A stretch of DNA of 64,000 bases from Alphaproteobacteria bacterium (lineage in GTDB: Bacteria; Pseudomonadota; Alphaproteobacteria; Bin95). Of the stretch, positions 42,193-56,006 are shown one piece after another. A program made the translations under genes and the position numbers. The first letter of the stretch is position 1. Every line of letters begins with the position of its first letter. The stretch is taken from positions 2,560,001-2,624,000 of the forward strand of contig CBDBGH010000003.1 of NCBI GenBank assembly GCA_965205265.1, written 5' to 3'. The notes beneath the pieces were generated by a model that had not been told where the DNA came from, searched no databases, and saw only the letters and a list, made by a program, of their open reading frames with translations.

Positions 42193-42986
42193 GCCCTGTC
42201 CGGGTGGAGCGGGAGGGGATCGCCCTTCACGTCCTGCTGACGCGGCCGGAACGCCGCAACGCGCTGACCCAGGAGACGATGGACGCGCTGCTTGTTGCGT
42301 TCCGGAATGCGAAGGAGTCGGACGCGCGCGCGGTCGTGCTGCGCGGCGAGGGCGGGCAGTTCTCGGCAGGCGGCGACATGTCCATGCTGGGCGACATCCC
42401 GCCGCCTGCGGACCCGGACCCGCTCTTTCCCGTCTATCGCAAGATGGGCCATGTGCTGGAACTGCTGAACGCGCTGCCGCAGGCTGTGATCGCGGTGGTC
42501 GAGGGAGCCTGCACGGGCGGCGGCCTCGGCATGGCCTGCTGCTCCGATGTCGTCATCGTCACCGAGGACGCAAAGATCGGCCTGCCCGAGGCGCGCGCCG
42601 GCTTCATCCCGGCGCAGGTGATCCCCCATATCGTGCGCCGCATGGGCGAAGGCTGGACCCGGCGGCTGGTCGCAACCGGCACGATACTGGACGGTCACGA
42701 CGCGCTCCGCGACGGCCTCGCCCACATTCTCGTATCCGGACGCGAGGAAGCCGACAGGGCGCTGAGGGAGGTGCTGGAGCAGGTCTGCCGCTCGGAGCCG
42801 AACGCGGTCGCGGAGGCGAAGCGGCTGGTCATCTCCGCCTCCGACCGCCCGGTGGACGAAACCCTGGACGACGCCGCCCGCACCATAGCCGCCCTATTGC
42901 GCGCCCCCGCCGCCCGCGCCGGCATAGACGCCTTCCGCGCAAAGCGCCCGCCTCCCTGGGCGGAAGAGGACGGTGACACCGGATAG
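42189..42986 (+). CDS. Enoyl-CoA hydratase/isomerase
   Basis: RPERRNAL, FSAGGD, GGGLGM, LPEARAG. Confidence 0.93.
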   Translation: MSPVRVEREGIALHVLLTRPERRNALTQETMDALLVAFRNAKESDARAVVLRGEGGQFSAGGDMSMLGDIPPPADPDPLFPVYRKMGHVLELLNALPQAVIAVVEGACTGGGLGMACCSDVVIVTEDAKIGLPEARAGFIPAQVIPHIVRRMGEGWTRRLVATGTILDGHDALRDGLAHILVSGREEADRALREVLEQVCRSEPNAVAEAKRLVISASDRPVDETLDDAARTIAALLRAPAARAGIDAFRAKRPPPWAEEDGDTG

Positions 42987-43240
42987 CAGCAGGAAGCTGC
43001 GCTCCGATTTCAAGGACCGAAAACTTATCGGCGGCGCGATCTACAAGGGCCATGGCGATGCCGGGCTGCTGACAGACAACGCCTGCGCCGGCGGCTGAAG
43101 CGCGGGCTTGGGCCGCCCAGCAGTAGGGCTGCGGCCGCACAGGACGTCGGCGCGCCGTCCGGAGAGGCGGCGAGAGCACGCAAATCGCGGCAAGAGAAGC
43201 GAATTGTTCGAAATAATTGAGTAATATTTCTCTATATGAC

Positions 43241-43267
43241 TTGCGTTTTCAGAAAGTGTGCTATAAT
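43241..43267 (+). promoter_or_regulatory. Extended -10 sigma70 promoter of cassette A
   Basis: TTGCGT-N15-TATAAT with TGn extension, preceded by an AT-rich tract. Confidence 0.6.
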
Positions 43268-43334
43268 GGGTTCGAGGGAGTGGAGTCCGCGCGGACCGCT
43301 TCCCGCCCGCGCCGGCCCGGTGCGGAACGACCCC

Positions 43335-43457
43335 GATTCAGCCGACAGGCGAAGTGCGCCCTGTGCCTGCCTCGCGCACGCGCAATCAGGCGCGCGAACC
43401 GCGCCGCCGCGAAACGTGCGCCCGCCCGCGCACAGGCGCCCGCGCAGGATACGCGCG
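43335..43457 (+). repeat. Conserved GC-rich leader, copy A (homologous to 55719-55830, minus strand)
   Basis: 33-nt identity (43379-43411 vs 55764-55796) and 16-nt identity (43430-43445 vs 55730-55745). Confidence 0.9.
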
Positions 43458-43525
43458 GTAAAGGGTCGCTCCGATGCCGGGACGGGGCGCCTGATGAACG
43501 CGAGACGAACGAAGGAGCCGCACCC

Positions 43526-43960
43526 ATGCCCGTGCTCGACCCGACCCTCTCCCTCTCCTCGCGCCAGGAAGCCTTCCGCAACCACTATTATGAAAATACC
43601 AGAGTAAGCATGTCATTCCATGACACGCCGCAACAGCCCGCCCGTCCAGCCGGCGTCGTCCCCGACGGCGCGAAGCGTCGATCCGGGACCTCAGGCGGCC
43701 CGCCCGAAGATAACTACAACCCCGAACGATCCTCCCGCAAGCGGGCCGATGGCGAGCGCCCGAGCGAGGAGGAACGCGCCGAGGGCGCGGAAACCGACTG
43801 GCTCTACCAGCGCCGCAACAACTACACGGAACTCCACGACCCCTGGTCGCCGGAGAACATCGAACGCCGTCGCCGGGACAGCCTCAACCGGCTCGAAAGG
43901 GCCGGCCCCTTCAACCCGCCCCGAAACGCCGGTTCCGCCCCCGACCATGACATTTCATGA
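43526..43960 (+). CDS. Orphan protein (144 aa); N-terminus resembles the start of a terminase small subunit
   Basis: AAGGAG RBS; LSSRQEAFRNHY resembles LT.KQ..F...Y; the remainder is low complexity. Confidence 0.5.
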   Translation: MPVLDPTLSLSSRQEAFRNHYYENTRVSMSFHDTPQQPARPAGVVPDGAKRRSGTSGGPPEDNYNPERSSRKRADGERPSEEERAEGAETDWLYQRRNNYTELHDPWSPENIERRRRDSLNRLERAGPFNPPRNAGSAPDHDIS

Positions 43961-43985
43961 CATTTCATGACATCCCATGACACTT
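43946..43985 (+). repeat. Four tandem 10-bp CATGACATTT-like units
   Basis: catgacattt catgacattt catgacatcc catgacactt. Confidence 0.92.
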
Positions 43986-44037
43986 CGCCAGGGAGCCCGC
44001 CATGTGCCGGTCCATGAACCTCAGCACATACCCGCCC

Positions 44038-44925
44038 TCAATCCCGTCCGGCGATGCGGTCTGCCAGCGCCAGAGTGCGGCGGGCCTTTTCGACGATGGG
44101 GTAATCGACGAAATAGCCGTCCACCTGGATGGAGGCGGAGCCGGCGGCCTCGGCTTCGTCGAAGGCGGCGACGATGCGCCGTGCGCGTGTCGTCTCCTTC
44201 TCTGTCGGCGAGAAGGCGTCGTTGACCGGGCCCACCTGGCTCGGGTGGATGCAGAGCTTGCCCTGGAAGCCGAGCGCCAGCGCGCGCCGCGCCGAGGCCG
44301 CGAAGGCCTCCGTCTCGCGCAGTTCGATGAACACCGTATCGACTGGCGGCTCCAGCCCGCCCGCCCGCGACTCCATCACCATCGCCGCGCGCGCATGCGC
44401 CAGTTCCGCCTCGTCCAGAGACCAGCGCATCCCCACATCGAGCGTGTAGTCGCCGGCGCCGAAAGAGAGCCGCCGGAGCCGCGAGCGGCAGGCGGCGATC
44501 TCCTTCAGGTTGGACATGCCGAGGCCGGTCTCCACGATAGGCATGAGGTCGATGCTGCCGACCTCCAGCCCCGCCTTGCGCTCGAGCTGGGCGAGTGTCC
44601 AGTCGATGGTCTGGAGCATGGCCGCGCTTTCGAGTTTCGGCAGCACGATGCCGTCGAGCCACGGCCCGACGACCGCTTCCATGTCCCCGAAGCACCACTC
44701 GGTCTCGGCGGCGTTGACGCGCACGAAGCCCTTGCAGGGCCGCGGCCGCCTGAGCGCGGCGACGGCGTCGGCGCGGGCGGCCGGTTTCTCTGCGACCGCA
44801 ACCGCGTCCTCAAGGTCCAGGATCGCCGCGTCCGCGCCCGCCCGGAACACCTTCTTCGCCATGCGGGCATGGTTGGCCGGCGCGAACAGGAAGCTCCGCC
44901 AGGGTCCGGTCGAGGACAGGGCCAT
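44038..44925 (-). CDS. CitE/HpcH-HpaI citrate lyase beta family CoA ester lyase
   Basis: RSFLFAPAN, ILDLEDAV, VRVN, LPK, IVET, GKLCIHPSQV. Confidence 0.93.
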   Translation of the reverse strand: MALSSTGPWRSFLFAPANHARMAKKVFRAGADAAILDLEDAVAVAEKPAARADAVAALRRPRPCKGFVRVNAAETEWCFGDMEAVVGPWLDGIVLPKLESAAMLQTIDWTLAQLERKAGLEVGSIDLMPIVETGLGMSNLKEIAACRSRLRRLSFGAGDYTLDVGMRWSLDEAELAHARAAMVMESRAGGLEPPVDTVFIELRETEAFAASARRALALGFQGKLCIHPSQVGPVNDAFSPTEKETTRARRIVAAFDEAEAAGSASIQVDGYFVDYPIVEKARRTLALADRIAGRD

Positions 44926-44934
44926 CTCGGCGCC

Positions 44935-45711
44935 TCACATCGCGGTCATGCCGCCGTCGATGGTCAGGTTCTTGCCGGTGATGTAGTTGGCCCCCGGCGC
45001 AAGCAGGAAGCAGACGCTGGGCGCCACGTCGCTGGTCTCGGCGTAGCGGCCGAGCGGTATGCGGGCCATGGTCTGGGCACCGAATTTCGGCCCCCGGATC
45101 ACTTCCGTCATCGGCGTGACGACCGTGCCGAACGCCACCGAATTCACGCAGATGCCGTAGCGCGCCCATTCCCGCGCCGCGCTCATGGTGATGCCGAGCA
45201 CGCCGGCCTTGGCGGCGCCGTAATTGATCTGGCCGATGGTGCCGGCCGTGCCTGCGATGGAGGACACATTGACGATCTGGCCGGGGCAGACGCCGAACTC
45301 GCCGGTCTCGGACTGTTTGATCATCTGCCTGCCGACCGACTGCAAGACCAGATAGACGGCCGTCAGGTTCACATTGATGACCTCGTCCCAGTATTCGCGG
45401 CTCATCTTGTGGATCATGGCGGCGCGGACGATACCGGCATTGTTGACGAGCCCGGTGATCGAACCCCACTCGCCGACCATCGCCTCGACGATGCCGTCCG
45501 CAAGGCCCTGGTCGGTGACCGAGCCGTGGAAGCCCATCGCCTTGTCGTCTCCGAGTTCGGCGACGAGGCTGTCTATGCCTTCCTTGTTGAGATCGACGAC
45601 GGCGGCGCGGCCGCCCATGGAGACGACGGTGCGCGCGACCTCGCGGCCGACGCCCTGCGCGGCGCCCGTGACCAGGACATTGCGGCCTTCGAGACTGAAG
45701 GGATTGCTCAT
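44935..45711 (-). CDS. SDR oxidoreductase (FabG/PhaB-like)
   Basis: TGAAQGVG, NNAG, YGAAK, IDGG. Confidence 0.93.
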   Translation of the reverse strand: MSNPFSLEGRNVLVTGAAQGVGREVARTVVSMGGRAAVVDLNKEGIDSLVAELGDDKAMGFHGSVTDQGLADGIVEAMVGEWGSITGLVNNAGIVRAAMIHKMSREYWDEVINVNLTAVYLVLQSVGRQMIKQSETGEFGVCPGQIVNVSSIAGTAGTIGQINYGAAKAGVLGITMSAAREWARYGICVNSVAFGTVVTPMTEVIRGPKFGAQTMARIPLGRYAETSDVAPSVCFLLAPGANYITGKNLTIDGGMTAM

Positions 45712-45788
45712 TTCGGCGTTTCCTTATGCATTCGGGTTCCGTTACCGTAGCCGCAACTGCGCCGGCGGCAAGCGGGAGAAAGGGACGC

Positions 45789-46847
45789 ATGACGGAGAAT
45801 CCGCGTTGGACGAGGCGGCCCGACGGGTCCACCTGGGGCGATTGGGGCCCAGACGACCAGCTCGGCCGGCTGAACCTGCTGACACCCGAACGGGTGCTGA
45901 CCGCGCGCGAGGAAATCCGCCTGGGCGAAGTCTATTGCCTGTCCCTGCCGCTGGACTATCCGGGCCGCAATGTGCTCAATCCCCGTCGTCATCCGCCCGT
46001 ACTGGAGCCGACCCGGGGACCGGACGGCGCGCCGCGCTACAACTTTCCGCTCCAGATCGAAGACCCCCGCCATATCGATGTCGGCTGCGACGACCGGGTG
46101 CAGATGACGCTGCAATATTCCTCGCAGTGGGACGCCTTCTGCCACATGGGGCAGATGTTCGATGCGGACGGCGACGGCATCCCGGAAATCCGCTTCTACA
46201 ACGGCTTCAGGGGCGGCGAGGACATTATCGGTCCGGTGGACTACAACGCCGACGGCTCGCAGACGCCCCGCCCGGAAGCGATGGGCGCGCGCAAGCTCGG
46301 CATCGAAACCTTCGCCGAAAAGGGGATTGTGGGGCGCGGCGTGATGATCGACCTGGAGCGCTTCTTCGGGCGCGAGGGGCGCCATCTCGTCACATATGAA
46401 GAGCTGATGCGCGTGCTGGAGGAGACCGGCGCGACGGTCGAGGAAGGCGATCTCGCCTTCTTCTACACGGGCTTCGCCGACCTGCTGCTGGAGATGGAGA
46501 AGGAGCCGGACGGCCCCCGCCTCGCCAATAGCTGCGCTGCGCTCGACGGGCGCGACGACCGGCTGCTGCAATGGGTCACGGACTCGGGCGTCGCCGCGCT
46601 CTTCGCCGACAACTACGCCGTCGAGCAGTCGCCCGCCCGGCCCATGCCGGGAGAGCGCTACGCCAACTCGCCGCTGCACCAGCACTGCCTGTTCAAGCTC
46701 GGCGTGCCGCTGGGCGAACTCTGGTATCTGGGCGACCTCGCCCGGCGGCTCCGGGAGCTCGGCCGGACACGCTTCTTCACCACCTGCCAGCCGCTCCGCC
46801 TGCCGGGCGCGGTCGGCTCCCCCGCCAATCCCGTCGGCATCGTCTGA
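45789..46847 (+). CDS. Cyclase (kynurenine formamidase-like) family protein
   Basis: WGDWGPDDQLGRLNLL, SSQWDAFCH, GRGVMID, ADNYAVE, LGELWYL, GAVGSP. Confidence 0.9.
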   Translation: MTENPRWTRRPDGSTWGDWGPDDQLGRLNLLTPERVLTAREEIRLGEVYCLSLPLDYPGRNVLNPRRHPPVLEPTRGPDGAPRYNFPLQIEDPRHIDVGCDDRVQMTLQYSSQWDAFCHMGQMFDADGDGIPEIRFYNGFRGGEDIIGPVDYNADGSQTPRPEAMGARKLGIETFAEKGIVGRGVMIDLERFFGREGRHLVTYEELMRVLEETGATVEEGDLAFFYTGFADLLLEMEKEPDGPRLANSCAALDGRDDRLLQWVTDSGVAALFADNYAVEQSPARPMPGERYANSPLHQHCLFKLGVPLGELWYLGDLARRLRELGRTRFFTTCQPLRLPGAVGSPANPVGIV

Positions 46848-46876
46848 CCCGCCAACCAGGAAAGCGACCGCATCCC

Positions 46877-47281
46877 ATGGCCATCACCAAGGGCATCGAC
46901 CGGCTCCTCGCCGCCGCCCGCGCGAAGATCGAGGAAATCCCCGCCGCAGACGCGCTGGCGCTCCGGGACGACGATTCCGTGCAGATCGTCGATATCCGCG
47001 ATGTGCGCGAACTCGACCGCGACGGCATGATCCCGGGCGCGCTGCATGCGCCGCGCGGCATGCTGGAATTCTGGGTCGATCCGGCAAGCCCCTATCACCG
47101 CGATGTGTTCGCAAGCGGCAAGAAGTTCGTCTTCTACTGCGCGAGCGGCTGGCGTTCGGCTCTGGCAACGGAGACGCTGCAGGACATGGGCCTGGAACCC
47201 GTCGCCCATATCGAAGGCGGTTTCACGGCCTGGAAAGAGGCCGGCGGCCCGGTCGCCGAACGGCCGCGCAAGGGCGGATAG
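46877..47281 (+). CDS. Rhodanese-like protein
   Basis: VDIRDVRE, PRGMLEFWVDP, YCASGWRS, GGFTAW. Confidence 0.93.
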   Translation: MAITKGIDRLLAAARAKIEEIPAADALALRDDDSVQIVDIRDVRELDRDGMIPGALHAPRGMLEFWVDPASPYHRDVFASGKKFVFYCASGWRSALATETLQDMGLEPVAHIEGGFTAWKEAGGPVAERPRKGG

Positions 47282-47309
47282 GCGGCGCTCCCGACATATT
47301 GCCTTCTTC

Positions 47310-47325
47310 CGGCACGCAGTTTGCT
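47310..47325 (+). promoter_or_regulatory. sigma54 (-24/-12) promoter of amtB-glnK
   Basis: CGGCAC-GCAGT-TTGCT (GG-N10-GC), 46 nt upstream of amtB. Confidence 0.75.
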
Positions 47326-47371
47326 TCTTACTAGGGGAACGGTCGTCCTCTGCAGGAGTTCGGAAGCGGCA

Positions 47372-49034
<1,663 letters not shown>

Positions 49035-49164
49035 CGGAGACATTGCGTCCCTGAAGCAGTTCGGGCGGCGCTGTCAGTTTGGTAGCGCCGCTTGCGCTTG
49101 CCGACCGCGACACCTGGCGGGTAGCCTTCGCCCTCCCGGCCCGCAAACAAAGGAAGCCGCGCCC

Positions 49165-50250
49165 ATGACGACGGTCCGAGCCATGACCTTCGGCGTGCAG
49201 ACCGCGCCCTCCACCGATGTCCGCAAGTCCGACAAGATGCTCTATGACGAGGTGATCGAAGACGTGAAGCTCGCCGCGGCGCTCGGCTACGAATCGGTCT
49301 GGATGCTGGAGCACCATTTCTCGGACTACTACCCGACGCCGAGCCCACTGCTCTTCATGGCGCATGTCGCCGCGCTTTGTCCGGATATCGGGCTCGGCAC
49401 CTCGGTGCTGGTGCTGCCCTGGTACCATCCGGTGCGCATCGCCGAAGAGGTCGCGATGCTGAACTCGCTGACGCGCGGCACCCTGCATCTGGGCCTCGGG
49501 CGCGGCACCGCGAAATCCGAATACGACGCCTATGGTGTGTCCATGCCGGAGGCGCGCGGCCGGTTCGCAGAGTCGCTGGACATCATCCGCAAGGGCCTCT
49601 CGGGGCAGGAATTCACCCATGACGGGACCTACTACAAGGTGCCGCGCCCGGTCCGCCTGCGCCCGGAGCCGGTGGACAAGCCGGTCAGGTTCTACGGCGC
49701 CATCGGCAGCCCGCAAAGCGCCGGCGTGATGGCCGGGCTCGAACTGCCACCGCTTTGCCTCTCCACCTTCCCGGCGCGGCTGCTGGAGCGGATCCTGGCG
49801 ACCTGGGACGAGAGCGCGCCCGCAAGCGCGGACCGGACCAAGGCCATCTCGATCAAGATGCTGATCGCCGACAGCGACGAGGAGGCGCTCAAGCTCGCGC
49901 GGCGTTATTTCCCGCCTTATTTCTCGATCCAGGCGGACCACTACGAGGCGGACGCGAACCCCTGGGAGAATATCGAGGAATACCAGCAGTTCTCCCGCAT
50001 GTTCGCCAATCTGCGCAAGATGGCGGACCCGGACGAGCTCGGCCCCTATTGCGAGATGAACCTTGTCGGCTCGCCGGAGACCGCCGTGGAGCGCCTCAAG
50101 GGCTATGCCGCGCTCGGTTTCGACTATGCGCTGGTTTCCGCCGCCACGCCCGGCATGCCCAAGGACCTGCAGCGCGAGGTCATGGCCCGCTTCGCCCGCG
50201 AAGTCGCCCCGCACTTCTCGCCGGCGTTCCGGGCGGAGGCGGCGGAGTAG
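49165..50250 (+). CDS. LLM (luciferase-like) flavin-dependent oxidoreductase
   Basis: WMLEHHF, LPWYHPVRIAEE, LGLGRG, VGSPE. Confidence 0.92.
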   Translation: MTTVRAMTFGVQTAPSTDVRKSDKMLYDEVIEDVKLAAALGYESVWMLEHHFSDYYPTPSPLLFMAHVAALCPDIGLGTSVLVLPWYHPVRIAEEVAMLNSLTRGTLHLGLGRGTAKSEYDAYGVSMPEARGRFAESLDIIRKGLSGQEFTHDGTYYKVPRPVRLRPEPVDKPVRFYGAIGSPQSAGVMAGLELPPLCLSTFPARLLERILATWDESAPASADRTKAISIKMLIADSDEEALKLARRYFPPYFSIQADHYEADANPWENIEEYQQFSRMFANLRKMADPDELGPYCEMNLVGSPETAVERLKGYAALGFDYALVSAATPGMPKDLQREVMARFAREVAPHFSPAFRAEAAE

Positions 50251-50424
50251 CGCCGCGAAGCGGCCTCGGTGACGAGCGTCGGAGCGCGGCCCGATCCGGC
50301 TGCGTTTCGGCAGTCGGAACCGCCAACGATCCCGGCATCCCGATCCGTCACGACTCCTGATGACATAGCGGCGCGTCTCCGTGAATATAGGCGTCGATTG
50401 CCCGAACAGCGAACCGGAGGCGCC

Positions 50425-51408
50425 ATGACCCTCAATGCCGAGCTCAGCCGCAGGATCTACACGGACATGTGGCGAATCCGCCTCTTCGAGGAAGAAGCGC
50501 TGCGCCAGACCAGCCTCGGCTCCGTCAAGGGCACGCTCCACACCTATTGCGGCGAGGAGGCCATCGCGGTCGCGGTCTGCGCGCATCTGCGCGACGACGA
50601 CTATGTACTGGGAACCCACCGCAGCCACGGGCACTGCCTCGCCAAGGGCGCGCCGATGGACCGCATGATGGCGGAGCTGTTCGGGCGCGCGACCGGGAGC
50701 TGCCGCGCCAAGGGCGGTTCCATGCACATCGCCGACTTCTCGCGCAACATACTGGGCGCGAACGGTATCGTCGCCGGCGGCATCGGCCCCGGCACCGGCA
50801 CGGCGCTTGCGAGCAAAATCCGCAAGAGCGACCAGGTGTCGGTCGTCTTCTTCGGCGACGGGGCGGCGGCGCGCGGGCCCTTCCATGAGGGCCTCCTGTT
50901 CGGCTCGCTCTGGAAGCTGCCGGTCATCTATGTCTGCGAGAACAACGGTTACCAGCAATGGGTGCCCCGGAAGAATGTGGCGGTGGTGGACTCGGTGGCC
51001 GACATGGCGGCCTCCTACGCCATCCCCGGCGTCTCGGTGGACGGGCAGAACCTGGAGGCGGTCTATGAGGCCGCCGGCGAGGCCGTCGCCCGCGCCCGCA
51101 ATGGCGAGGGCCCGACCTTGATCGAGGCCCGCACATACCGTTTTTACGGCCACAGCCTGGGCGACATGGAGGAATACCGCTCGCGCGAGGAAGTCGATGA
51201 CTGGCGCGAGAACCGCGACCCGATCAAGCTGTTCAGCGCGTGGATGAAGGAGCGCCAGTGGCTGGGCGACGATGAGGACGAGGCCATCCAGGGCGAGGTT
51301 GCGGCGGAGGTCTCGCGGTCCGTGGCGTATGCCGAGGAAAGCCCGTTGCCGGAGCCGGAGGACGTGCTGACCGACGTGCTGGATACGGAATGGAGGGTTT
51401 CGGCATGA
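50425..51408 (+). CDS. TPP-dependent dehydrogenase E1 alpha (AcoA/PdhA-like)
   Basis: THRSHGH, KGGSMH, FFGDGA...CENN, TYRFYGHS. Confidence 0.95.
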   Translation: MTLNAELSRRIYTDMWRIRLFEEEALRQTSLGSVKGTLHTYCGEEAIAVAVCAHLRDDDYVLGTHRSHGHCLAKGAPMDRMMAELFGRATGSCRAKGGSMHIADFSRNILGANGIVAGGIGPGTGTALASKIRKSDQVSVVFFGDGAAARGPFHEGLLFGSLWKLPVIYVCENNGYQQWVPRKNVAVVDSVADMAASYAIPGVSVDGQNLEAVYEAAGEAVARARNGEGPTLIEARTYRFYGHSLGDMEEYRSREEVDDWRENRDPIKLFSAWMKERQWLGDDEDEAIQGEVAAEVSRSVAYAEESPLPEPEDVLTDVLDTEWRVSA

Positions 51409-52376
51409 GGACCATCGCGCTCCGCGATGCGCTCCGGGAAGCGCTGCATGAGGAAATGGCCCGCGACGAGAGCGTCTTCGTCATCGGCGAGGACGTGATC
51501 GCCCATGGCGGCCCCTATACCGTCACCCAGGGCATTGTGGACAAGTGGCCGGACCGCATTTTCGAGACGCCGATTGCGGAGGCGGGCATTGTCGGCCTCG
51601 GCGTGGGCGCGGCGCTGGCCGGCATGCGCCCGGTGGTCGAGATCATGTATGTCGATTTCATCACCTGCGCGATGGACGAGGTCGTCAACCAGGCCGCCAA
51701 GATGCGCTACATGACCGGCGGCCAGGCGAGCGTGCCCATCGTCATCCGCCTGCCCTGCGGCCCCGCCCGGCTGGTCGCGGCCCAGCATTCGCAGATCATG
51801 GAATCCTGGTTCATGCATGTGCCGGGCCTCCAGGTGGCGGCGCCGAGCACGCCCTATGACGCAAAGGGCCTGATGAAGACCGCGATCCGCAGCCCCGACC
51901 CCGTGGCGTTCTTCGAATACAAGGCGCTCTATGTGAGCGAGGGCGAGGTGCCGGAAGACGACTATGTCATCCCCTTCGGCAAGGCCGACATCAAGCGCGA
52001 GGGCGAGGACGCGACCGTGGTCGCCATCGGCGGCATGGTGCCGCGCGCGCTGGAGGCCGGCATTGCGCTCGAGGACGAGGGCTACGACATCGAGGTGGTG
52101 GACCCGAGGACGCTCGCCCCGCTCGACATGGAGACGATCCGCGAGTCCGTGCGCCGCACGGGCCGCGCCGTGGTTTGCGAGATGGATTCCTCCTTCGCCG
52201 GCACCGGCGCGGAGATCGCGGCTGCGCTCGCCGAGCAGTGCTTTCACGACCTGCGCGCGCCCATTGTGCGGGTCGGCAGCCCGCATGTGCCGATGCCCTT
52301 CGCCGAGGAGCTGGTCAACGTCACGGTTCCCGATGCCGGGGACGTCTCGGATGCCGTGCGCAGGGTCATGGCCTGA
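51405..52376 (+). CDS. E1 beta subunit
   Basis: GEDV, TPIAE, GMRPVVEIM, QHSQ, EVVDPRTL. Confidence 0.95.
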   Translation: MRTIALRDALREALHEEMARDESVFVIGEDVIAHGGPYTVTQGIVDKWPDRIFETPIAEAGIVGLGVGAALAGMRPVVEIMYVDFITCAMDEVVNQAAKMRYMTGGQASVPIVIRLPCGPARLVAAQHSQIMESWFMHVPGLQVAAPSTPYDAKGLMKTAIRSPDPVAFFEYKALYVSEGEVPEDDYVIPFGKADIKREGEDATVVAIGGMVPRALEAGIALEDEGYDIEVVDPRTLAPLDMETIRESVRRTGRAVVCEMDSSFAGTGAEIAAALAEQCFHDLRAPIVRVGSPHVPMPFAEELVNVTVPDAGDVSDAVRRVMA

Positions 52377-53545
52377 TGGCGGTCCGCCTCAGGCTCGCCG
52401 CGCTCGGCCACACCATGGAGCGCGGCAGGATCGTGGAATGGTATGCGGCGGAAGGCGCGCCGGTCGAACAGGGCGCGCCGCTCTACTCCGTCGAGACCGA
52501 CAAGGCGACCGTCGATGTCGAGGCGCCGGCCGGCGGCGTGCTGTTGCGCATCGACGCGGAGGCGGACCGGGAATATCCGGTGGGCGCAACGCTCGCCTGG
52601 ATCGGCGAGAGCGGCGAGGACCTGCCGGACAGGACGGACGAGACCGCGGCCGCGCCGGCGGCCGTGTCGGACGAACAGCGCGTCACGCCCGTCGCCCGGC
52701 GCCTCGCGGAACGCCATGGCGTGGACGCCGACCGGCTGGAAGGCACCGGCCCCGGCGGGCGCGTCACCAAGGAGGACGTGCAGCGCGCCGTCGCCTCGGG
52801 CACGGCCCCGCCGCTGGAAGAGAAGCCGTCGGGCGAGCCCGCGCATGACGTGATTGCGCTGGAAGGCATCCGCCGGGTCACGGCCGAGCGCCTCAGCGCG
52901 CACTGGACCGGCACGCCGCAGGTGACCGAGGGCCTCGATATCGACATGACCGCCATGCGCGCCTTCCGCAACGCCAACCGCAGCGAATGGCGCGCGGCCT
53001 ACGGCATCGTGCCGGCGCTGAACGACATCGTGCTCAAGGCCGCCGCGGCTGCGCTGGAAGCCAACCCGGCGCTCAACGCAGCCTTCGTGGACGGGGCGAT
53101 CCATCGCTACCGGGAGATCAATCTCGGCATGGCCGTGGATGTCGAGGACGGGCTCGTCGTGCCTGTGCTGCGCGATGCCGGCAGGCTCGACCTCGGCGGC
53201 ATCGCCTATGCCGCCGCCGACCTGACCGCCCGCGCGCGGTCCCGCAAGCTCGCGCCTGCGGATTTCGAGGGCGCCACCTTCACGGTCACAAATCTGGCCG
53301 CGCTCGGCGTGGACTGGTTCACGCCGGTGCTCAACCCGCCGCAATGCGCCATCCTCGGCGTCGGCCGGATGCGGCGCATGCCGGCCGTCGCCGGCAACGA
53401 GGTCGCGATCCGCGACATCGCCACCTTCGTCGTCACCTTCGACCACCGGGCCCTCGACGGCGCCCCGGCCGGGCGTTTCCTCTCCAGGCTGAAGCGCCTG
53501 CTCGAATCGCCCGACCCGGCGCTGTTCGCGGGCGCGGGCGGGTAG
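52376..53545 (+). CDS. Dihydrolipoamide acyltransferase E2
   Basis: Lipoyl VETDKA, E3-binding GTGPGGRVTKEDV, catalytic DHRALDG. Confidence 0.95.
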   Translation: MAVRLRLAALGHTMERGRIVEWYAAEGAPVEQGAPLYSVETDKATVDVEAPAGGVLLRIDAEADREYPVGATLAWIGESGEDLPDRTDETAAAPAAVSDEQRVTPVARRLAERHGVDADRLEGTGPGGRVTKEDVQRAVASGTAPPLEEKPSGEPAHDVIALEGIRRVTAERLSAHWTGTPQVTEGLDIDMTAMRAFRNANRSEWRAAYGIVPALNDIVLKAAAAALEANPALNAAFVDGAIHRYREINLGMAVDVEDGLVVPVLRDAGRLDLGGIAYAAADLTARARSRKLAPADFEGATFTVTNLAALGVDWFTPVLNPPQCAILGVGRMRRMPAVAGNEVAIRDIATFVVTFDHRALDGAPAGRFLSRLKRLLESPDPALFAGAGG

Positions 53546-53569
53546 GCCGGCCGGGCCTCGCGCTGAGCC

Positions 53570-54601
53570 ATGCGGACCACGCAGCTGATCCATGTCGTCG
53601 GCTGCCATGCCGAGGGCGAGGTGGGGGATGTGATCGTGGGCGGGGTCGCGCCGCCGCCGGGAGCGACGCTCTGGGAGCAGAGCCGCTTCATCGCCGGGGA
53701 CGGCCGGCTGCGCGATGTGGTGCTGAACGAGCCGCGCGGCGGCGTCTTCCGCCATGTCAACCTGCTCGTGCCGCCGAAGGACCCGGCCGCGGCGATGGGC
53801 TTCATCATCATGGAGCCGGAGGACACCCCGCCTATGTCCGGCTCCAACGCGATGTGCGTCGCGACCGTTCTGCTGGAGACCGGCATCGTGGCGATGGAGG
53901 AGCCGGAAACCCGTTTCCTGCTGGAGGCGCCGGGCGGCCCGGTCGAGGTCATCGCCGCCTGCCGGGACGGCAAGGCCGAGCGGGTGCGCATCCGCAATGT
54001 CCCCTCCTTCGCCGACCGGCTCGACGCGCCGCTCGAGGTCGAGGGCATGGGCACGCTGCGGGCCGATACCGCCTATGGCGGCGACAGCTACGCCATCGTG
54101 GACGCGGCCGCGCTCGGCTTCTCGCTCCGCCCCGACGAGGCGCGCGACCTCGCCGTCGCCGGCATGCGCATCGTCAGCGCCGCGAACGAGCAGATCGGCT
54201 TCCGCCATCCCGAGCAGGCGGACTGGGCGCATCTCTCCTTCTGCCAGTTCGCCGCCCCGCTCGAATATCGCGGCGGCGTCCCTCACGGCCGCAATGCGGT
54301 CGCCATCCGCCCCGGCAAGATCGACCGCTCGCCCTGCGGCACCGGCTGCTCGGCCCGGCTGGCCGTGCTGCACGCGAAGGGCGTTCTCCGCGTGGGCGAC
54401 AGCTTTGTGGGCGTCTCGCCGATCGACTCCCGCTTCGACTGCCGGATCGAGGGCGAGACCGCGGTGGGCGGCCGCCCGGCCATCCTGCCCTCGCTCGCCG
54501 GGCGGGCCTGGATCACCGGCACGCGCCAGGTCATGGTCGATCCCGACGACCCCTGGCCGCGCGGCTACCGCCTCGCCGACACCTGGCCCGACGACCGCTG
54601 A
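53570..54601 (+). CDS. Proline racemase/hydroxyproline epimerase-dehydratase family protein
   Basis: [25 protein letters not shown]. Confidence 0.93.
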
Positions 54602-54647
54602 ACAGGGCGGCAGGCCCGCGATCCCGCCGCACCGCGCCTTCCCGGCC

Positions 54648-54710
54648 GATGTCATGAGATGTCATGAGGCGCCGTGAGCCTTCCCCGCGATGTGTCATGA
54701 AATGTCATGA
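54648..54710 (-). repeat. Two pairs of 10-bp TCATGACAT-type repeats (3' end of cassette B)
   Basis: gatgtcatga-gatgtcatga and tgtgtcatga-aatgtcatga; reverse complements of the 43946 units. Confidence 0.88.
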
Positions 54711-54832
54711 TCTGCATGCCCGGAGTTCATATGCCGTAGCCGTTTCAGGCATGAAGCCGTCCACGCATTGACCTCCTTCCCGGCCTGTGGGCGAAGCCCG
54801 GCAAAGGCCCGTCGCGCTGAAAGACGGCCTCC

Positions 54833-54991
54833 CGTCCCCCTGCCCTCGCGAAAGCGGGGGCACCCCGGTTCCCCTTCAGCGTCACCCCGGCCGGAACGGA
54901 GCGAAGCGGAGTGGAGAGCCGGGGTCTCCCTGCGGCGTCGCCCCTGCCGCGGGAGGTCCCGGATCGGCGCTGACGCGCCGTCCGGGACGAC
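54833..54991. repeat. REP/BIME-like palindromic cluster
   Basis: Hairpins CCCTCGCGAAAGCGGGGG, GTCACCCCGGC...GAGCGAAGCG...GCCGGGG and GTCCCGGATCGGCGCTGACGCGCCGTCCGGGAC. Confidence 0.75.
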
Positions 54992-55083
54992 GGCAAAAGC
55001 TCATGGGTTCTTGCATGTAGCCGCTGGTATAAGGCAAGCAGGATGGAGACGATCCCCGCCGCAAGCGGGAGGGCGGGCATGCT

Positions 55084-55680
55084 CTACCATCCACCGGCGC
55101 TCCCGCCCGCAGCGGCGGCCTCCCTTGCGGCGAGTTCTGCGGCCTCGCGGCGTTCCTGGCGGGCGAGCCAGTCGTAGAACGCGGGCGTGGTCAGCTTGCC
55201 CACATACTGGCGCTCGCCGAAGTTGTAGTAGTCCTCGCTGCCGTCGTAACTGTCCTCGTCGGGCACCAGCGGCCCGAAGCGGCGCTCCTGCTCCGCATGC
55301 CACGCCCGGAACTCCGGCGTCTGCTGGCTGCCGACATAGACCTCGTCGAAATAGTGGTATTCGTCCTCGCTGCCGTCATAGCCGGTCTCGGGCTCCGGCT
55401 CCGGAACCCAGTCGTCGAGGTCCTCCGCCGGTTCCCCGATGACTGCCGGCTCCGGCTCGGGCATGCGGGCGGCGGCCCAGTCGAGGAGGTTGAGGATCTG
55501 GCGCAGATGGGAGAGCGCGGCGCGCCCGGCGCGGTGACGGTCGGCCAGGGCGCGGTCGTCCTCCGGCGGCGGCGCTGCGTTCATGTCCTGGGCATAAGCT
55601 TCGGCAAGGGCTGCGGCGGCGGGCGCCAGCTTTTCGGCCAGCATCGCCGCCAGTGCGGGGCGGGGGTCGGTTGCGGTCAT
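55084..55680 (-). CDS. Orphan protein (198 aa): helical N-terminus plus two ~43-aa acidic/aromatic tandem repeats
   Basis: GGAGGAGG RBS; repeats YDGSEDEYHYFDEVYVGSQQTPEFRAWHAEQERR and YDGSEDYYNFGERQYVGKLTTPAFYDWLARQERR. Confidence 0.75.
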   Translation of the reverse strand: MTATDPRPALAAMLAEKLAPAAAALAEAYAQDMNAAPPPEDDRALADRHRAGRAALSHLRQILNLLDWAAARMPEPEPAVIGEPAEDLDDWVPEPEPETGYDGSEDEYHYFDEVYVGSQQTPEFRAWHAEQERRFGPLVPDEDSYDGSEDYYNFGERQYVGKLTTPAFYDWLARQERREAAELAAREAAAAGGSAGGW

Positions 55681-55718
55681 CGTCTCTCCTCCTCCGACGG
55701 GAAGCGGGTCCCTGTTTC

Positions 55719-55830
55719 GCGCGTCTCCCGCGCGGGCGCCTGTGCCGGCGCGGGCGGGCGTTACGCGGCGGCGCGGTTCGCGCGCCTGATTGCGCGCGCG
55801 AGGCGGCGGGCGCACGTCTCCCGTCGGCTT
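55719..55830 (-). repeat. Conserved GC-rich leader, copy B
   Basis: Reverse-complement homologue of 43335-43457. Confidence 0.9.
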
Positions 55831-55911
55831 CCCAGGGGTTTTCAGAAAGTGGCGCCGCTCGGCCGCGCAGCACCCGGGGAGGCGGCTCCGGAGTCCGCTT
55901 CCCTGGGGGCC

Positions 55912-55938
55912 ATCATACCATAATCCGCCAGATGTCAA
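55912..55938 (-). promoter_or_regulatory. Extended -10 sigma70 promoter of cassette B
   Basis: TTGACA-N15-TATGAT with TGn extension and an AT-rich upstream tract. Confidence 0.65.
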
Positions 55939-56006
55939 GCCCATACAGGGAACATAATTCAAAAATATCGGAAATTGTTCATATTATCGAAGGCAGGAAA
56001 GGGCAG

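Follow-up and report, generated by a model that had tools for sequence, protein, structure and literature searches.

A 64,000-nucleotide stretch of an alphaproteobacterial genome (GCA_965205265.1, contig CBDBGH010000003.1, positions 2,560,001 to 2,624,000; hereafter the window) harbors two members, elements A and B, of a family of non-autonomous dispersed repeats that is undescribed and restricted to one uncultured alphaproteobacterial genus. The genome as a whole contains 71 copies of this family. Each member has two asymmetric ends, consisting of a promoter block and a leader on the left and of a hairpin followed by two to five CATGACA repeats at 10-bp spacing on the right, and the long forms carry one of two unrelated protein genes. 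The A-type gene encodes a small-terminase-like protein and the B-type gene a 198-aa protein, and both proteins are under purifying selection, with ratios of nonsynonymous to synonymous substitution rates (dN/dS) of about 0.3. The anatomy, copy number and distribution of the family, the identity of its cargo, the selection acting on this cargo and the decay of copies in place are observed directly. Our preferred reading, to which we assign a probability of roughly 55%, is that these repeats represent an undescribed family of selfish elements that resemble miniature inverted-repeat transposable elements (MITEs), differ from them in their asymmetric ends and are built on a phage cassette of the pac/terS type.

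Copy number and anatomy of the family

An earlier annotation of the window, made from its letters alone (the original prediction), had described two copies of a dispersed non-autonomous cassette in which a non-coding scaffold is conserved. Our genome-wide census, anchored on 23 nt of the leader core with at most 4 mismatches and run alongside BLAST searches, returned 72 places, 71 of which are true copies. The number of copies had thus been far too low, while the notion of a dispersed non-autonomous family with a conserved non-coding scaffold was borne out, and the concern that there might be just two remnants of a phage or insertion sequence (IS) gene can be put aside. Just as no transposase had been seen at the two loci, none was found in any of the 71 copies. 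All of them reside on the chromosome (5.46-Mb contig C3), and a covariance model of the core (R1) gave 75 matches in the same genome. Both ends recur throughout the family. A tandem CATGA[CG][AG] pair follows the anchor at a distance of 182–1159 nt in 64 of the 71 copies, and among the 92 tandem-repeat clusters of the genome, 73 lie behind a leader anchor; the remaining 19 include several 3′ modules that have been separated from their 5′ part by other insertions. At the left end, a −35/−10 hexamer pair is present in 61 of the 71 copies (131 of 2000 random genomic segments being positive in the same scan), with a spacer of 15 nt in 24 copies and of 16 nt in 15, and 34 copies have a TG extension. 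Of note, the 0.83 Mb between 4.63 and 5.46 Mb of C3 are free of family copies and show a positive GC skew of 0.03–0.05, stronger than that of the rest of the contig.

Aligning 16 short copies revealed a basic unit of about 480 bp. It opens with an AT-rich left block, often starting with TTGTTC, followed by promoter-like hexamers and a hairpin-containing leader about 230 nt long. The leader gives way to a purine-rich stretch, GGAAGGA-type Shine-Dalgarno sites and an ATG, and after some 50 nt of variable sequence the unit is completed by the 3′ module, in which ATGCCYGAAACGGC precedes an imperfect hairpin and a pair of CATGACA repeats; two to three further repeats often follow after about 23 nt. 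The similarity between paralogues begins at the AT-rich block and stops at the repeats. Because TCATGA provides a stop codon in two of three frames, all types of open reading frame (ORF) end in the repeats. The mini-ORF of the short copies occurs in 31-aa and 41-aa classes, between which a 20-nt indel shifts the frame of the 3′ module, and it is therefore not conserved as a protein. In some copies, whole hairpins have been cleanly deleted. The ~480-bp short forms are deletion derivatives, several of which arose in place.

Element A extends from 43203 to 43990 on the plus strand, as do all its parts, and is an internally deleted A-type member. Its limits are those of paralogue similarity, with BLAST matches to the stretch 43190–44000 beginning at query position 13–14 and stopping at about 783, and a paralogue at C3:3934513-3935344 has the same composite layout. 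The AT-rich left block with the promoter-like hexamers (43203–43267) contains a predicted promoter, in which TTGCGT (43241–43246) is separated by a 15-nt spacer from TGC-TATAAT (43259–43267, with TATAAT at 43262–43267); transcription would start about 7 nt past the −10 box. The GC-rich leader (43275–43525), with AAGGAG at 43512–43517, includes the conserved core (43375–43465), in which the 33-nt and 16-nt blocks identical between the two loci and the hairpins H5 and H6 are found. The leader is followed by ORF A (43526–43960, 144 aa), whose stop codon falls in the second of the four CATGACA repeats that form the right end at 10-bp spacing (43946–43982, with starts at 43946, 43956, 43966 and 43976). 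An extra CATGACA is located at 43619, and an unrelated REP-like (repetitive extragenic palindromic) short repeat within ORF A (43674–43699) is also present in locus B at 54946–54971.

Element B occupies 54647–55991 on the minus strand and is a B-type member, its left end lying about 16 nt beyond the stop of the upstream gene. It has nine full paralogues of 89–97% identity, which start at query positions 1–62 of the stretch 56000→54640 (BLAST). The AT-rich left block (55912–55991) holds TTGACA (55938–55933), a 15-nt spacer and TGG-TATGAT (55920–55912, with TATGAT at 55917–55912). Within the leader (55681–55905, core at 55710–55800), GGAGGAGGAG at 55695–55686 could pair with an upstream CUUCC. 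Next in line are ORF B (55084–55680), encoding the lineage-restricted 198-aa protein, and the 3′ module (54647–54763), comprising ATGCCTGAAACGGC, an imperfect hairpin and two CATGACA pairs (54703/54693 and 54660/54650); the corresponding query positions 1238–1354 match the 3′ ends of many other family copies. The interval from ORF B to the 3′ module accommodates a nested, unrelated repeat of about 200 nt (54831–55030), which genome BLAST searches (query positions 971–1170) placed at other genomic sites with 83–93% identity and without the rest of the element.

The location, strand and general layout of the two loci are as originally described. Their pairwise alignment contains both the 33-nt and the 16-nt identical block, the 15-nt spacer with a TG-extended −10 box can be read in each of them, this spacer length being a trait of the family, and both loci end in four CATGACA repeats at 10-bp spacing, those of B being arranged as two pairs. 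The two leaders share a 91-nt stretch (43375–43465 vs 55710–55800), which lies on opposite strands and is 87% complementary. Across the window, CATGACA occurs 11 times as compared to 3.26 ± 1.86 times in shuffled sequence, with 0 of 100 shuffles reaching 11, and 9 of the 11 occurrences fall in the two loci (5 in A and 4 in B). A terminator scan found no intrinsic terminator at the 3′ end of locus A or B, and neither promoter was called by a sigma-70 scan, which accepts spacers of 16–18 nt only.

Two unrelated cargo proteins

The small-terminase-like protein is encoded by seven intact copies in the genome and comprises 300–311 residues. Its N-terminus (residues 11–85) matches Terminase_2 (PF03592) with a Pfam E-value of 4.1e-13, the match being confined to positions 2–73 of the 141 in the profile, and the protein matches PHROG 51 (terS) with an E-value of 6.6e-14. 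All seven PF03592 matches of the genome fall inside A-type elements. The AlphaFold model contains a confident helix-turn-helix domain, and the best PDB matches obtained with Foldseek are to the DNA-binding domain of SF6/SPP1-type small terminases (39–40% identity, target TM-score of 0.82, rmsd of 0.8–2.1 Å). With regard to a ring-forming oligomerisation core, the long helices following this domain were modeled at a pLDDT of 58–73, and one full-length SF6-like chain aligned with the A-type model at an rmsd of 8.4 Å. Outside its DNA-binding domain, the protein is helical or disordered, having an acidic tail of about 200 residues and motifs that are invariant across 21 homologues. The median dN/dS over 21 paralogue pairs is 0.30. 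In IMG/VR, the small-terminase relatives of the A-type protein are distant only, at 28–36% identity. ORF A of the window, previously regarded as an orphan, is a remnant of this gene that joins residues 1–21 to residues 218–287, i.e. the N-terminal 21 and the C-terminal ~70 residues, of a 311-aa paralogue; the DNA-binding domain has been deleted, and the 144-aa product has no Pfam family. The suggestion that the repeats might be packaging or recombinase sites gains a lead from the terminase-like cargo.

The B-type protein is present in nine full copies of 91–100% protein identity, and its median dN/dS is 0.26 (36 paralogue pairs). It has no Pfam, NCBIfam or PADLOC family and shows a weak match to a PHROG of undefined function. 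Among 1.84 billion cluster representatives, which were searched exhaustively, there were 78 matches, many of them fragments, with identities of 37–91% among those listed, and the protein atlas contained unnamed clusters only (at 0.85). The protein is predicted to fold into a helical hairpin followed by two β-hairpin-plus-helix repeats, a model for which no fold match was found in the PDB (best E-value 1.7). Searching the PADLOC defence-system families gave no hit for either cargo protein at E ≤ 0.01. As had been stated for ORFs A and B, there is no detectable homology between the two proteins; by eye, a short W-L-x-x-Q/R-R-R-like motif is common to the B protein and the A-type tail. The idea of a scaffold with variable cargo held in part. 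Different genes are indeed carried, but they belong to two protein families only, the other ORFs being junk-like or arginine-/proline-rich read-throughs of nested repeats.

Distribution, placement and decay

Of 16 other genomes from the genus, 13 gave covariance-model matches, six of them at least 83 each, and the genomes of two sister genera gave none (0/10 and 0/10). In BLAST searches of 16 genomes that represent other families in the class, two marginal matches were obtained. Among the 16 relatives, 11 have the terminase-like gene and 14 the B protein. The three genomes of the genus without the family (G001, G003 and G013) are also the most divergent at flanking genes, with 78–85% identity. 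Public records with the core are metagenome-assembled genomes titled 'Alphaproteobacteria bacterium' and one contig titled Bryobacterales. In the latter, four family copies are arranged in tandem, 200–300 nt apart (L029:1229-2037); this contig may be mis-binned, its title being at odds with all other family records. IMG/VR contains no copy of the core, and literature searches, the scope of which did not extend to supplementary files, found no description of the family.

The relative G011 has 219 tandem-repeat matches vs 18 leader-model matches. In one of its copies that we read, the promoter and first hairpin are present, as are the Shine-Dalgarno region and the 3′ module, but the core is missing, and the shortest copy read is composed of the promoter, about 45 nt and the repeats, with nothing else. 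The ends, and not the 33-nt core, are therefore the constant parts of the element. Accordingly, the leader highlighted by the original prediction does recur 71 times in the window's own genome, but its 33-nt core is dispensable, being missing from these two G011 copies. The excess of repeats over leaders points to a lineage-specific expansion of the short form. The tandem arrays of G011 also exhibit a regional strand bias, as the first 1.55 Mb contain 26 minus-strand and 7 plus-strand arrays; the window's own genome shows no bias of strand relative to the direction of replication.

With regard to placement, gaps between convergent genes are favoured, being occupied by 16 of the 36 copies for which both flanks were callable. 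Relative to the downstream gene, 18 copies are co-oriented and 29 opposed, revealing no tendency to face it. From 44 copies on loci of other genomes, 12 could be placed in the window's own genome, where 10 of these sites are occupied as well and 2 are not; the junctions at the two unoccupied sites align poorly because other repeats sit there. At shared sites, the length of the element often differs (e.g. 613 vs 1375 nt), with the long form in one species and the short form in another, and cargo has therefore been lost in place. Orthologous leaders are 71–92% identical as compared to 66–97.5% for their upstream flanks, the leader being less conserved in 8 of 10 pairs. In one of the orthologous pairs, a leader of 84.9% identity stands beside a flank of 97.5% identity, which suggests replacement or conversion between copies.

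The site of element A is polymorphic within the genus. It is empty in nine relatives, in which a gap of 22–40 nt separates the flanking genes, and carries a full-length A-type element in G005, while a different insertion of about 1.7 kb is found in G007, G010 and G012. The G007 insertion encodes a 445-aa P-loop ATPase-like protein and a 144-aa protein, and positions 42992–43102 of the window match, at 74–77%, the G007 stretch that forms the 3′ end of the 144-aa gene. Site A (window 42965–43202) is a compound variable spot. Family arrays elsewhere are met by another repeat or IS-like element, 12 of whose 21 ends abut CATGA of such arrays (on C3, e.g. at 42319, 293197, 840610, 980248/980495 and 4009077), and this other element apparently prefers CATGA arrays as insertion target.

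Origin of the family and relation to known systems

We propose that the family descends from a phage pac/terS cassette made up of a promoter, a ribosome-binding site, a terS-like gene and direct repeats. The left block would act as a sigma-70-type promoter, the CATGACA arrays would be the recognition sites of the terminase-like protein, and the two asymmetric ends would be the parts required in cis by a selfish, non-autonomous unit. At the population level, the behaviour of the family is that of selfish DNA, with copies occupying harmless gaps, decaying one by one and retaining only their ends and their protein genes.

A number of results weigh against this proposal. The alignment of 16 copies contains no terminal inverted repeats, and near the left ends of the 71 copies the heptamer hardly ever occurs in reverse complement. 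No target duplication of ≥6 bp was detected, in a test that is blind to duplications of 2–4 bp: the longest word shared between the flanks had a mean length of 5.06 as compared to 5.31 in mismatched controls (50 copies), and a shared word of 8 nt occurred in 1 of the 50 copies vs 4.9% of the controls. The genome has no match to the Y1 (HUH) transposase of REPIN/RAYT systems and IS200/IS605-derived elements (PF01797), for which the control search was positive in 6 of 14 control genomes, and the Y2 transposase of IS91/ISCR rolling-circle elements (PF04986) is represented by a single 48-aa fragment with a stop codon. The DEDD transposase of the IS110 family (PF01548), whose members have a long 5′ non-coding RNA and no inverted repeats, has eight matches in the genome, none of them behind a family leader. 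We rejected an IS110 partner because the one inspected gene, next to a 3′ module, has REP-like sequence on either side and looks as if it had been inserted secondarily into a nested REP. Phage functions are likewise missing from the genome in searches for the large terminase (PF03237 and PF03354, the two families covered) and for the HK97 capsid (PF05065). Neither the A nor the B protein has a recognisable catalytic domain, and two unrelated proteins on one scaffold, both of them selected, fit poorly with a simple autonomous/non-autonomous pairing. Moreover, one relative (G008) has 46 leader-model and 25 tandem-repeat matches without a terminase-like gene, and recent movement is poorly documented, 10 of the 12 placeable sites being shared.

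Other candidate partners were considered and set aside. An IS21-like ORF near one copy looks like a separate insertion and not like a family transposase, and the reverse transcriptases of the genome mostly fall into two multicopy groups. A helper phage or gene-transfer agent was rejected on the basis of the missing PF03237, PF03354 and PF05065 matches and of the nature of the extra contig, which is a plasmid. This 43-kb contig (C2) is a circular replicon of about 28.3 kb that was assembled about 1.5 times over and encodes a MobA/MobL relaxase-helicase, RepA, ParA and a resolvase; one sub-threshold 99-aa portal fragment is located on it. The contamination estimate for the assembly is 7.28%.

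Among the alternatives, the family could be a multicopy functional small RNA or leader, whose active part, the 3′ CAUGACA tail, might for example be a sponge or a platform to which an RNA-binding protein or complementary targets bind; the coding versions would be variants on the same expression platform. We regard this as unlikely, although it would account for the retention of promoter hexamers in 61 of the 71 copies, for the clean loss of whole hairpins, for the shortest G011 form, in which promoter and repeats are linked by about 45 nt, and for a mini-ORF that is not conserved as protein. It also draws on pairing in the leader that is maintained by compensatory change, where the two 5′ hairpins H1 and H2 pair in 82% of cells across 36 copies (37–49% in slid controls), with 26 cells changed on both sides (11.8 ± 2.6 when shuffled; 0 of 500 shuffles reached 26) and 21 further pair types (16.4 when shuffled; 0 of 500 reached 21), and where H5, H6 and H8 pair in 91.6% of cells, most pairs being invariant and one H6 pair alternating between CG (23 copies) and GC (9). 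Since the copies are related to one another, none of these values can be taken as a probability. Hairpins drawn by hand were used for the counts because the RNAalifold consensus is weak or empty in three alignments, the covariation term being about 0. Single-sequence folding z-scores (−2.0, −0.6 and −0.8) are not clearly better than those of shuffles. Rfam has no match at the gathering score in the whole window and none at E ≤ 1 for 8 family loci; the concern that the leader might match a known family therefore does not apply. In sum, the evidence for the structured leader or non-coding RNA that was originally suggested is positive but modest. The leader-to-flank depth ratio at locus B was about 100-fold in a sponge metatranscriptome (a single RNA-labelled run, contigs), the same level as in a DNA run (about 92-fold). 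What further argues against a functional RNA is that orthologous copies usually diverge faster than their flanks, that the most conserved core is missing from the G011 copies read, that a 3′ intrinsic terminator is lacking and that copies gather between convergent genes, as selfish repeats do.

Comparably unlikely, in our estimation, is that the copies are chromosome-wide pac-like sites with an adaptor protein that would bind the arrays and, during phage infection, bring in the large terminase of the phage, leading to packaging of host DNA similar to lateral transduction or to a decoy defence. Such a role would suit the SF6/SPP1-type small-terminase DNA-binding domain, which is the only domain recognised in the family, and also the multiplicity of the gene and the purifying selection on it. 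As far as the account in PMC4737164 goes, the pac site of SPP1 extends over the promoters and into the beginning of terS, with direct repeats inside it, a layout that the family parallels. At least three CATGACA at 10-bp spacing also occur in ten unrelated IMG/VR viral contigs (L133–L142; GC 28%–64%), some of them near promoter-like sequence, and phased CATGACA may be a recurrent protein-binding array in phages. As neither of the two large-terminase families searched is represented in the genome, any partner would be external; however, no helper phage was found, and IMG/VR offers distant small terminases only and no core. The G008 genome maintains its leaders without the adaptor gene, the B-type protein has no place in the scheme, and PADLOC matched neither protein. 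In its most developed form, a working system in which dozens of transcribed pac-like sites are read by terminase-like adaptors, possibly together with the 198-aa protein, and are exploited by a phage motor for chromosome-wide transduction or decoy defence, this explanation seems to us quite improbable. Very doubtful is the view that the family is a fossil, resulting from one ancient burst in the ancestor of the genus by an enzyme since lost, with copies that are immobile, functionless and eroding. The shared sites (10 of 12), the cargo lost in place, the divergence of copies ahead of their flanks and the failure to find a partner enzyme are all compatible with a fossil. Yet both cargo genes are intact in many copies at dN/dS values of 0.26–0.30, the short form seems to have expanded in G011, 2 of the 12 sites are unoccupied and site A is polymorphic in the genus, and the leader of 84.9% identity beside a flank of 97.5% suggests replacement or conversion.

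If our proposal of a selfish family is correct, a repeat family is multiplying without inverted ends, target duplications or a recognisable transposase, being built from a phage packaging cassette and not from an IS, and the question is what moves the elements. Tests can draw on the two proteins, which are small and conserved, on the array of 7-bp repeats and on well over 1000 natural copies across 13 genomes. For genome annotation, the units matter in that they scatter promoter-like sequences and spurious ORFs over the genomes of a poorly known lineage, give rise to 'terminase small subunit' calls there and break short-read assemblies. Should the packaging-site explanation apply instead, the family would show a bacterial chromosome engaging phage terminases in a novel manner.

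Several known systems share features with the family. The Correia (CREE) elements of Neisseria are MITEs with outward or internal promoters. Like these, the family is small, non-autonomous, high-copy and intergenic, with promoter-like sequence, a variable interior, conserved ends and individual decay; unlike them, it has asymmetric ends without terminal inverted repeats, no detected target duplication and no related autonomous IS found, and its long forms carry non-transposase genes. REP/REPIN sequences, which are mobilised by RAYT, are short GC-rich hairpin repeats in intergenic gaps, often between convergent genes. The family is similarly GC-rich, hairpin-forming and dispersed in gaps, often between convergent genes, but has its own promoter and genes, lacks an inverted doublet and resides in a genome without a Y1 (RAYT/IS200) transposase. 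In plasmid pSK41, the operator of the repressor ArtA is CATGACA, single or in tandem and overlapping −35 boxes, according to the part of PMC2777438 that deals with these sites, and CATGACA can therefore serve as a protein-binding site. No homology is implied, as the ArtA host is Staphylococcus, the binder is a ribbon-helix-helix protein and the sites are at promoters, in contrast to the 3′ ends in the family. Staphylococcus aureus pathogenicity islands (SaPIs) and phage-inducible chromosomal islands (PICIs), like lateral transduction, are comparable in their way of working only; the islands are reported to be chromosomal elements with their own small terminase, which in their case redirects the packaging of a helper phage to their own site. 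The family differs from the islands in having no integrase, replication or capsid-remodelling genes, a size of 0.5–1.4 kb, dozens of sites per chromosome and no helper found. Finally, set against the pac/terS region of SPP1/SF6, the cassette of the family stands alone, with no adjacent large terminase, portal or capsid gene, is present in at least seven copies per genome, encodes a protein with an acidic tail of about 200 residues and has its repeats downstream of the gene. What the two have in common, within the description given in PMC4737164, is a small terminase with the same N-terminal helix-turn-helix, placed in a cassette with a promoter, a ribosome-binding site and short direct repeats.

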